64,000 bases of DNA, taken from Chthoniobacterales bacterium (GTDB lineage: Bacteria > Verrucomicrobiota > Verrucomicrobiia > Chthoniobacterales > UBA6821). The DNA lies in assembly GCA_049314455.1 (NCBI GenBank), contig JBMOFC010000006.1:747-64746 (forward strand), given 5' to 3'. Positions 12,001-15,000 of this stretch are shown here, piece by piece. The position numbers were made by a program. The number at the start of each line of letters is the position of its first letter. Within the stretch, counting starts at the first letter, position 1.

Positions 12001-15000
12001 TAAAATATTGATAATACCTAAAAAGGGAACACGGATCAGTTGGCGTCCGACGACGTAGGTGAGCCATGCAACTTTATAAACAAGGGCATAGGGTAAGCCA
12101 TAACAAGCGGCTTCTAGCGTTGCTGTTCCTGAGCAGACGAGACCAAAGGTTGCGTGTTGCATCAGCTCTCGTGCTTTTCCTACGGTGATGGTGATAGGAA
12201 GGTCAGCACTACGTGCCATCTCTTGCATGATGATAGCATGGGCAGAGGTTGCGGCTGCTGCTTCGCAAGAAATTTCAGGATGCATTGTTACAACCTGCTT
12301 TGCTGCCTGAATCATGGTTGGAAAGAGGCGATGGACTTCACGCTCGCGACTTCCAGGAAAAAGGCCCAAGAGATTCTTTTTACGGGTAAGTGGAGCGTTT
12401 TCCTTTTTAGCAGCCATGATGGTTTCAACCAAAGGATGTCCTACAAATGCTGTGGGAAGTCCCGAAGATTCATAGAGTTCTTGTTCAAACGGAAAAATAC
12501 AAATCATCAGATCCAGTAAGCACGCCATTTTAGGAATGCGGCTTTTGTGCCAGGCCCAGACTTGAGGGCTGATGTAATAAAAAATCTTCAGTGGAAGCTT
12601 GCGACGACGAATAGCCTTTGCGAGTCGTAAATTAAAACCGGGATAATCGATTAAAATAATGGCTGCTGGCTTTTCTTCTTCGAGCTGCTTGAGAAATTGA
12701 GAGAATTTTGCACGGAAGTAGCCATATTTTTTGAGAACATCCCAGAGGCCGACTACACCAGCTTCATGAATCCAGTTGTCAAAACTCTTGTTAAATTCTA
12801 TTGCTGCTGCAAAGGGCTGCATCGTGACAGTGTTCGCTTCGTCAAGTACCTTATGGACACTCCTCGGCTGTGTGCTGTCGACTTCCTGCCATTCATCAGT
12901 ATTAGCGAATTTAACAACGGGTTTGTATTGTGTCGTAGATAAGGGCTGACGTTGAAGCAAAGGTTTTTCTTCATTAGGCTGCTCCGAAGGAGAAGCAGCA
13001 GCTTTCATTTTAGGCCCACCTGCTCCGATAAAAGAAATAATAGGGACCTGTTCGCGCAGCGCCTGCATCAAGGCCGCGCCATAGGTGTCACCACTCGCTT
13101 CGCCAGCCAGCAGAAATATTTTTGGTGAAGCCTTTTTCAAGAAAAAATATTTCTCGTCGCTACGGTTTTATGGCAACTATTTTCCCATCCTTTATGATGT
13201 GGATATGGGCATCATGAAAACGAGCTATCTTGCGGGCTTCTTCACCAGCACGAATGAGGGCACGTTCGATTTTGGCAAGCATAACCTCTTGAGGATATGC
13301 TTTTCTTTCATTAGAAGTCTGTTTCATTCTTTTTTTCTATTAATCGCGCGATTGTCTCTGAATTTTCATAAACGAACCAATCATCTGCTAAAGGTTGATA
13401 GAGATTTAAGAAATTTTTCCAACCTCGATCAAAGCGACGGAGCACCGTGGCTTCAGGGATATTGTGGCCACCCTGCCTGACTCTTTCGGCAACGCGTTTT
13501 AAGGATAAAGAAGCAGAATGAAGGCGTAAATAAATTATTTCGATACGATACCCTTCAGTTTTCAAATGCTTCAAAAGAGGAATATAACAGTAACCACTCA
13601 AGGTTGTTTCAAAAGCAAAATCGACTTTTTCTTTAGCAAGTCGTTTGAGCTCTTCTAAAAAAAGCCGTCCAGCCTTGAGTTCCACCAAGGAAGAATCAAA
13701 CGGGGAAAGACCAGCGGCAATCAGGTCGGCATTGATGAAATGGACAATATTGAGCTCCTTGAGCAAGAAATTCCGTGCAAAGGTCGTTTTGCCGGCGCCG
13801 TTGGGGCCAGCAATGATGCAGCACAAGGGTTGTTCTTGTGAGCTCATTTTTTTCGAAGACGATAGAGTAGATGTTTTGAGAGAGGGTGATCCAACGGTAA
13901 TTTGGAATGAGCAAAGTCTCCTTGCATGTCTCGCAGCATACCAAGGCGCTTCATCACGGCCTGTGAACGTAGATTAGCATAGGCAGTACAGGAGACAATT
14001 TCGTTGAGTCCTCCTTGATGAAACCCATACTCTAACGCTGCCTTGGCACCTTCAGTGGCATAGCCATTGCCCCAGTACTGAGAACCAAGTCGCCACCCAA
14101 TTTCAGTGGCCGGTGCAAAAACAGCCTCAAAATCGACCACGTTAAGTCCAATGAATCCAATCATTGCAGCAGAAGTTTTTAATTCAGTAGCCCATAAGGT
14201 ATAACTATGGTCTTGCTGGTGCCGATTCATCGCTTCCATAAATTTTCTTACCTGATCTATCGTCAAAGATCCTGGCAAGAACTCAATTACTTTGGGATCT
14301 TGGTTGATCTGAAAGTAAACCTCGACATCCTCTTCTTTCCAGGTTCGGAGGATGAGGCGTTCTGTCGTGATGATAGTTTCGTGGTTCATCGTCCTATGGA
14401 ACTATTTTTCTCCTGAATCTGTTTGGTAATCTTCAGGGCCAATTCCAGAGCTGCAGCCGCTTCATGACCAGTGACCCGTGGCTGAATGCCGGTGCATGCG
14501 CAGTCGATGAAGGAGGTGAGCTCGCGCACGAGAGGTTCTCCTTTGATGACCTTGACGCGTTGACGTTTAATTTCTTTTCCGTTCAGGCGAAGCATGTAGC
14601 CATTTTGTTTTTGATAGTCGAGTGAGAGGTAAGCATCTTCTTGAAAAATGCGAATTTTCCGGACTCTATCGCGGCTGATGCGACTTGCCGTGAGGTTGGC
14701 CACACATCCATTTTCAAAATGCAGACGAACATTGGCAATATCCTCTCCACGGCTAAGGACAGGGATCCCCACCGGATCAATACTCACCACGGGGGAACGC
14801 ACGAGGTGCAAAATAATTTCCAAATCATGAATCATCAGATCCAAGACGACCCCTATATCGATACTGCGATTGGGATAGGGAGAGATACGTGTGACTTCCA
14901 AGAAGCGTGGATTTTTGAGTTGTGCTTCAAGGGCCTCTAATGCTGGATTGAAGCGCTCGACATGTCCTACTTGGAGAATCGCTTGATGTTTTGCAGCAAT

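Follow-up and report, generated by a model that had tools for sequence, protein, structure and literature searches.

A zeta-family kinase gene and its conserved downstream small partner inserted in the lipid A operon of a Chthoniobacterales bacterium

The lipid A operon of a Chthoniobacterales bacterium (assembly GCA_049314455.1, contig JBMOFC010000006.1) carries two small inserted genes on the minus strand. We analyzed a stretch of 64,000 nucleotides of this contig, hereafter the window. The first gene encodes a zeta-like P-loop kinase, and the second, directly downstream, encodes a basic protein of 55 amino acids (aa) that we call the mini-ORF (ORF, open reading frame). The pair lies between gnnA and lpxB and recurs as a conserved, mobile unit in many phyla. 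With modest confidence, we favor the reading that the two genes form a toxin-first type II toxin-antitoxin (TA) or abortive-infection module of the zeta superfamily. A sequence-only reading of the same DNA had proposed, as one option, that a TA-like module landed in an essential operon. This idea survives as an inserted, conserved and mobile pair; the module has two genes, and the neighboring GNAT gene is incidental to it.

To define the partnership, 43 loci with kinase relatives were collected, one genome per species, and the downstream DNA was inspected for small ORFs. Most of these loci encode a short protein with a basic tail, a helix with the pattern ..AL(R/K)RAAxxAR.. and then G(T)P(I/V)x(I/V)..DGK(I/V)V. 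A hidden Markov model (HMM) was built from the downstream ORFs and run against all six-frame fragments of all loci. In about 36 of the 43 unrelated loci, from more than 10 phyla, it places a co-directional mini homolog directly 3′ of the kinase, and its significant matches fall at the kinase-downstream position only. The mini-positive loci come from Verrucomicrobia, Sumerlaeota, Acidobacteria, Dehalococcoidia, Nitrospirales, Planctomycetes, Latescibacterota, Bacteroidota (Flavobacteriales), Cyanobacteria (Cyanobium), several proteobacterial classes, and others. The commonest junction between the two genes is a 4-nt ATGA overlap. The C-terminal tail of the kinase varies in length among relatives, and the overlap in the window is 17 nt because the tail is five codons longer there. 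A small partner downstream of the ATPase had been called unusual, and it is the rule for this kinase family.

The mini family is large and unannotated. Profile searches recovered 1,996 clusters at 90% identity and, among 1.84 billion representatives, 3,755 at 50% identity. The 1,996 clusters lack Pfam domains, and all that have a source name are labeled “hypothetical protein”. The family has no significant match in Pfam, NCBIfam, PDB sequences, or PADLOC. Comparison within the clade gives a dN/dS of 0.09-0.29 for the mini-ORF (against five orthologs) and 0.08-0.15 for the kinase, which indicates purifying selection on both; the flanking genes give 0.03-0.07 (gnnA) and 0.09-0.22 (lpxB). Across loci, the distances of kinase and mini protein co-diverge (Mantel r = 0.42, matched by 0 of 2,000 permutations), with the mini protein diverging faster.

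A short ORF in this position could also be a chance ORF, or a mere translational-coupling spacer for lpxB with no protein function. A first, word-based search found only 8 close matches, from which the mini-ORF was taken as lineage-specific until the downstream-ORF profile overturned that view, and in one relative (L006) the gene finder missed it. Judged from sequence, the chance or spacer explanation is refuted and its probability is negligible: there are thousands of profile homologs, always 3′ of the kinase even where lpxB is not nearby, dN/dS is below 0.3, and the predicted fold is confident. The sequence-only reading would have been weakened by a mini-ORF without conservation, and conservation, purifying selection and thousands of homologs were found.

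In the AF2 (AlphaFold2) model of the mini protein (pLDDT 84), a disordered basic tail (residues 1-11) is followed by a 27-residue helix (12-38) and a beta-hairpin (42-53). A fold search of the PDB gave no significant structural neighbor for this model. Matches to MADS-box proteins had E values above 1, and the modeled likeness would be a resemblance of topology at most. Two proteins, P0259 (102 aa) and P0324 (116 aa), are tandem duplicates of the mini domain, and their sequences suggest that the domain normally works as a dimer. In a Latescibacterota metagenome-assembled genome (MAG; L018, 7499-8605), the N-terminal helix of the mini protein is fused to DUF3644 (E 7e-48), which replaces the beta-hairpin. 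Fusions of kinase and mini protein were considered as evidence and rejected: P0315 and P0266 look frameshifted or degraded, and the lone in-frame fusion (L016) may be an assembly artifact.

The kinase belongs to a family of at least 8,000 homologous clusters at 90% identity, and the window protein is 100% identical to an NCBI protein of a Chthoniobacterales MAG. The window protein matches the Pfam Zeta_toxin model over residues 3-162 with 49.0 bits, against a gathering cutoff of 22.3 bits. Its AF2 model (pLDDT 88.8) has zeta (1gvn_B, 3q8x) and PezT (2p5t) as its top Foldseek matches (E 1.6e-8 to 8e-8, query-normalized TM 0.73-0.79), and the next are a Clostridium thermocellum polynucleotide kinase (4jt2) and AvrRxo1 (4z8q). 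The family profile was aligned to PDB-derived PezT and zeta sequences (hhalign probability 89%). The Walker A motif GPNGAGKT occupies residues 14-21 and D41 is the catalytic Asp; K20, T21 and D41 align to K45, T46 and D66 of PezT (K46, T47 and D67 of zeta) and are invariant in 26 family members. Zeta K70 is not kept and aligns to an invariant Ala44. The sequence ETTLSG (80-85), invariant across the family, stands at the position of zeta EGTGRT. A lid motif, R118..R122-V-x-Q-G-G-H128-x-V-P, is invariant and specific to the family, and is followed by RRF-R-W.

These motifs bear on the substrate. The residues of zeta that contact UDP-GlcNAc are E100, T118, R120, T121, and T128 (PMC4938570). Only one of the five is identical on our alignment (T118, which is T82 in the kinase). 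The counterparts of R120, T121 and T128 are the invariant S84, the invariant G85 and a Leu. E100 falls on L64, with an invariant E66 two positions further, so that E100 may be kept with a small shift. The kinase probably does not bind UDP-GlcNAc in the manner of zeta, as far as the aligned residues indicate. Both proteins are basic, with a median isoelectric point (pI) of about 10. We assign no substrate, because the UDP-GlcNAc contacts are mostly lost and both proteins are basic; a nucleotide or nucleic-acid substrate is possible. The proposal that the kinase acts on the precursor used by the surrounding lpx genes, made by analogy with zeta toxins, is weak for the same residues.

The kinase also departs from canonical zeta and PezT in its gene neighborhood. 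Its upstream neighbor, which is GNAT in the window, is gnnA in relatives and any of various genes elsewhere, with no antitoxin of the epsilon/PezA type; a small ORF upstream of the kinase occurs only in two distant homologs (L044 and L045, 32-34% identity). By its predicted features the protein is in a known superfamily but lacks both the UDP-GlcNAc motif and the upstream antitoxin of the canonical members. The contig of one relative (L052, 5419-6274) also bears a second, longer zeta-family gene (219 aa) with a 69-aa ORF before it, which is the classical antitoxin-first order.

Comparison with relatives supports insertion of the pair. A scan seeded with LpxB gave 80 further lpxB loci. In the closest relatives the order is gnnA, a variable slot, the kinase, the mini-ORF, and lpxB. 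In the sister loci L058-L060, with LpxB 55-61% identical and a divergence about that of the pair-carrying relatives, the order is lpxI, the Gfo/Idh/MocA (GFO) oxidoreductase gene, lpxB and the HIT gene, without the pair; no remnants of the pair were found in these loci. In many more distant Verrucomicrobia the GFO gene directly abuts lpxB. From these pair-less operons we conclude that the ancestral order was lpxI-gnnA-lpxB and that the pair was inserted. The GC and GC3 contents do not mark the inserted genes as foreign.

The gnnA-like gene forms the upstream border of the insertion slot, and the content of the slot varies. It is empty in L003-5, L052 and L054/55, where gnnA and the kinase share an ATGA overlap. 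It holds GNAT in the window and L138 only, a YhgA-type transposase (Transposase_31) in L001 (4471-5445), and in L056/57 a cassette of three ORFs that includes a ParE toxin (L056 2828-3545). The sequence-only reading had grouped GNAT, kinase and mini-ORF as a three-gene unit and had suggested a comparison of the operon in relatives. That comparison upholds insertion for the kinase-mini pair and separates GNAT from it, since other relatives have nothing, a transposase or the ParE cassette in its place. GNAT and the 329-aa gene are separate cargo insertions and not partners of the kinase. The 329-aa ORF, described before as GT-like, has no NCBIfam or PDB match and no above-threshold Pfam match. 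It is absent from every relative's locus examined, and thus marks a second insertion in the operon, specific to this genome and placed between lpxI and gnnA. The gnnA-kinase slot, which gathers mobile cargo in sister genomes, acts like a local hotspot for insertion.

The inserted genes are tightly packed. The minus-strand string runs leuS, lpxI, the 329-aa ORF, the GnnA-like gene, GNAT, the zeta-like kinase, the 55-aa ORF, lpxB, and a gene for a HIT protein. The order from lpxI to lpxB given earlier agrees with our ORF listing and with the Pfam and NCBIfam matches. Direct reading of the sequence likewise agrees with the junctions described before: GNAT is joined by ATGA to each of its neighbors (14386-14389 and 13844-13847), and the kinase and mini-ORF overlap as listed in Table 1. 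The lpxB gene has a TTG start 19 nt past the mini-ORF stop. A scan for promoters and terminators in 11000-20000 gave no more sites than in shuffled sequence, which makes a single transcription unit plausible. The pair would now be transcribed with the lipid A genes and is probably translationally coupled to them. Since it lies 19 nt upstream of the essential lpxB and overlaps its upstream gene, an imprecise deletion would have polar effects, a possible reason for its retention in the clade.

The position of the pair had raised a second option, namely that a domesticated UDP-sugar kinase and acetyltransferase modify the lipid A precursor. The kinase would phosphorylate UDP-GlcNAc or UDP-GlcNAc3N, GNAT would acetylate the amino sugar, and together they would tune lpx flux. 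The tight packing and overlaps from gnnA through GNAT and the pair to the lpxB region fit such a role, as does retention of the pair here under purifying selection in a clade with LpxB identities down to about 60%. Canonical zeta toxins do phosphorylate UDP-GlcNAc (PMC4938570, PMC10532202), and in a Sumerlaeota genome (L009) the pair lies about 2 kb downstream of gnnA-lpxB. We nevertheless find this option improbable. Sister lineages and most Verrucomicrobia have lpxI-gnnA-lpxB alone, and the pair is dispensable in the sister lineages. Outside the clade, lpx genes lie near the pair in only 1 of 49 loci (L009), which by a rough estimate is about chance. GNAT occurs in only two genomes and is of the PA3944-like type rather than a sugar-nucleotide N-acetyltransferase, and the zeta residues for UDP-GlcNAc are replaced as described above. 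The kinase, mini-ORF, and GNAT should not be annotated as enzymes of lipid A synthesis.

Beyond this clade the pair also lives in mobile and defense settings. Kinase matches occur in 562 plasmid records, and in all annotated examples the gene of a “zeta toxin family protein” is overlapped by that of a downstream “hypothetical protein” of 55-66 aa. In Synechocystis pSYSG (L050, 1291-5417), the order is hsdS, an MNT nucleotidyltransferase gene, kinase, mini-ORF, a DUF4433 (DarT-like) gene and a macro domain (DarG-like) gene. The pSYSG genes are co-directional and tightly packed, with several toxin-type modules nested in a type I restriction-modification (R-M) locus. Kopfmann et al. described sll8001-ssl8005 of this plasmid, in which kinase and mini-ORF are sll8004/ssl8003, as “related to TA modules” with the criteria for such modules not fulfilled (PMC4963859). 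On a Legionella plasmid the pair adjoins Tn3, and it is also present in Nostoc, in Crocosphaera (near an integrase), and in Parabacteroides distasonis. Kinase and mini protein are WP_058481833 and WP_058481834 in Legionella, and WP_008779360 and WP_005858864 in Parabacteroides distasonis.

Several copies in MAG loci lie inside type I or type III R-M operons or next to defense-type genes. The pair lies between a type III res subunit gene and a DNA methylase gene (L008), after a ResIII helicase gene (L022), after hsdM (L032) or hsdS (L041), after a Schlafen/HATPase gene (L024), and between genes for a 1,588-aa SNF2-type helicase and a KAP NTPase (L025). Overlaps of 4 nt make up many of the junctions in these R-M and defense loci. 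Other copies are appended to housekeeping operons: der-plsY (L009), lepA, uvrD, and cmk-plsC. In L009 (2539-7721), the Sumerlaeota MAG, a gnnA-like gene, lpxB, der (EngA GTPase), plsY, the kinase and the mini-ORF follow one another, and a 14-nt overlap joins the kinase start to the plsY end. Here too, as the second such case, the pair is attached to an operon for envelope lipids or housekeeping.

The toxin-first module is the reading we prefer for these observations. Two small, adjacent, co-directional genes are inherited together, and their distribution is patchy and mobile, on plasmids, with mobile elements and in defense islands; both are traits of type II TA systems. A two-gene cassette entered the operon between gnnA and lpxB in an ancestor of the Chthoniobacterales clade. 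The kinase, a minimal phosphotransferase of the zeta/PezT fold, would move the phosphate of ATP to a hydroxyl of a conserved cellular substrate, by means of Walker A Lys20, the catalytic Asp41, and the lid arginines. The mini protein would be translated by coupling from the kinase stop, and may bind the kinase and neutralize or regulate it, possibly as a nucleic-acid-binding dimer. The anatomy, conservation, mobility and insertion of the pair are observed here, as are the fold and motif state of the kinase, while we infer its toxicity, its neutralization by the mini protein, its substrate, and any defense role.

Several points weigh against a toxin-first module. Kinase and mini protein are both basic, whereas TA pairs usually combine an acidic antitoxin with a basic toxin. 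At 50-60% identity across phyla the kinase is unusually conserved for a toxin. In many genomes, including the window, the pair is promoterless and overlaps an upstream housekeeping or R-M/defense gene, while classical autoregulated type II modules have their own promoter; in the window the kinase start overlaps the GNAT stop and the signal for an own promoter is at chance level in our scan. PADLOC and PHROGs recognize neither protein as a defense component. Phage genomes almost lack the pair (4 weak matches in 50,697 records), and we found no report of toxicity, binding or substrate for any family member.

Where the pair has its own promoter, an operator could be present. A candidate on a Crocosphaera plasmid (plasmid B; L140, 3935-3964) is a nearly perfect 14-nt palindrome (CATAATGTATGACA/TGTTATACATTATG), found 34-60 nt before the kinase start. 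No palindrome was found upstream of the Parabacteroides or Legionella kinase copies.

Some of these points lend strength to another, less likely reading, in which the kinase is a non-toxic accessory enzyme and the mini protein a small nucleic-acid-binding adaptor or regulator. The pair would then spread as a useful cassette and not as an addiction module. For example, the kinase could be polynucleotide-kinase-like and have the ends of RNA or DNA, or else a nucleotide cofactor, as its substrate, which the basic mini protein would recruit or gate. We leave this reading appreciable weight because both proteins are basic (strongly so), the kinase is unusually conserved across phyla, and many copies are promoterless, as on the housekeeping operons named above. 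The best full-length PDB sequence match of the family profile is Pnkp1 (4xrp, 2e-6), and in the fold search zeta and PezT come directly ahead of the Clostridium thermocellum polynucleotide kinase. The mini topology of basic tail, long helix and hairpin is like that of small dimeric DNA binders, with the MADS-box matches non-significant, and tandem-duplicated mini proteins exist. On the other hand, the pair occurs patchily within the clade and is enriched on plasmids, by transposons and in R-M/defense loci, and the top structural neighbors are toxins. In the loci examined, no gene for an RNA-repair phosphatase, ligase or Hen1 accompanies the kinase.

More speculatively, and with a lower probability still, the pair may be a new two-component system rather than a classical addiction module, in which a conserved basic kinase and a small dimeric nucleic-acid binder phosphorylate a nucleic acid or nucleotide. 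Such a system could serve as a phage guard embedded in R-M operons, and in Chthoniobacterales the lipid A operon could have captured a copy, which would be co-expressed with envelope synthesis.

The pair resembles several known systems in part. With epsilon/zeta and PezA/PezT the kinase shares the P-loop phosphotransferase fold, a Pfam match above threshold, the Walker A motif and the catalytic Asp, and these are likewise small two-gene modules on plasmids and chromosomes. It differs in size (178 aa compared with 253-287 aa), in the GTXR substrate motif, which reads TTLS here, and in the RVxQGGHxVP lid, which is specific to the family. Its partner is downstream, basic and unrelated to epsilon or PezA.

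AvrRxo1 is a zeta-like kinase that phosphorylates NAD (a 3′-kinase) and not UDP-GlcNAc, and its antitoxin Arc1 is encoded downstream (PMC4938570, PMC5087710). The gene order of kinase and then small partner is shared with the pair, in which neutralization by the mini protein is putative. AvrRxo1 has kept the ATP-binding and catalytic residues and lost the UDP-GlcNAc-binding ones, as has the window kinase, and it is among the Foldseek matches of the kinase (E 3.5e-7). However, AvrRxo1 is about 420 aa with a secretion domain, and no sequence relation to the kinase-mini pair was detected. Arc1 has 81-121 aa in three to four helices, all-helical, with a KExFD...YExxYY motif, whereas mini proteins have 50-70 aa and form a helix and hairpin. 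The Arc1 motif is absent from a 30-member mini alignment.

Bacterial polynucleotide kinases are similar in size (about 170 aa), have an arginine-rich lid and are close in fold (4jt2, E 8.6e-8, TMt 0.71). Unlike the Pnkp RNA-repair system (Pnkp1/Rnl/Hen1), the window kinase has no phosphatase, ligase or Hen1 domains or neighbors in the loci examined, and Pnkp lies in RNA-repair operons while the pair lies in mobile-element and defense contexts. PrrC, of the prr locus, is an anticodon nuclease lodged inside a type I R-M operon. The pair likewise sits between hsdM or hsdS and R-M/defense genes in several genomes, often with 4-nt overlaps. It differs in encoding a kinase and not an anticodon nuclease, and its host operon in the window is for lipid A and not for R-M.

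Few toxin families are as widespread as the zeta-family kinases, many of which are listed as “orphans”. A 2023 census of PezT/zeta reported many such orphans and sought partners only among upstream genes (PMC10532202). Our literature search (COG4185, PF06414, pSYSG, zeta in R-M loci), of incomplete coverage, found no description of a downstream partner. A large zeta subfamily, of at least 8,000 clusters, has a conserved and previously unannotated downstream partner with thousands of members. The mini family is a candidate antitoxin or regulator with a new fold to characterize. If the reading is right, its roughly 3,755 clusters would provide a new partner or antitoxin fold for “orphan” zeta toxins, whether the pair acts as a guard or is a captured cassette. 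The case also shows promoterless, ATGA-joined cassettes lodging in essential or defense operons. A polar effect of imprecise deletion on lpxB would be a positional route to persistence that is independent of post-segregational killing.

Table 1. Genes and the kinase-mini overlap at the lipid A locus, in window coordinates
Feature	Position	Strand	Evidence and remarks
lpxI (UDP-2,3-diacylglucosamine diphosphatase)	16341-17180	-	Pfam LpxI_N and LpxI_C; ancestral operon member
329-aa ORF (previously GT-like)	15333-16322	-	sub-threshold Glyco_trans_1_2 match only
GnnA-like UDP-GlcNAc 3-dehydrogenase (GFO_IDH_MocA)	14386-15321	-	NCBIfam NF040723 7e-61, below curated cutoff; PDB 7bvj 7e-47
GNAT	13844-14389	-	Pfam Acetyltransf_3 3.7e-36; PDB 6edd (PA3944) 4.5e-41
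Zeta-like P-loop kinase, 178 aa, putative toxin	13311-13847	-	Pfam Zeta_toxin PF06414 6.7e-13
Mini-ORF, 55 aa, pI 10, putative antitoxin or regulator	13160-13327	-	conserved downstream partner of the kinase
lpxB (lipid-A-disaccharide synthase)	11791-13140	-	Pfam LpxB 1e-85; TIGR00215 9.6e-72, above cutoff; ancestral operon member
Overlap of kinase stop and mini-ORF start, 17 nt	13311-13327	-	stop 13311-13313, mini-ORF start 13325-13327

The closest solved relative of the GNAT protein is Pseudomonas aeruginosa PA3944, which reportedly acetylates polymyxins in vitro. If so, finding a PA3944-like gene among those for lipid A is an odd coincidence. GNAT was also considered as a TA toxin of the TacT/AtaT type and rejected: it belongs to Acetyltransf_3 and is PA3944-like, and its upstream gene is gnnA, without a small antitoxin ORF (DUF1778 or RHH).

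The LpxB protein of the window has an insert of about 80 residues, roughly at residues 45-125, that lies outside the coverage of the Pfam model. Among close relatives LpxB ranges from 358 to 463 aa in length.

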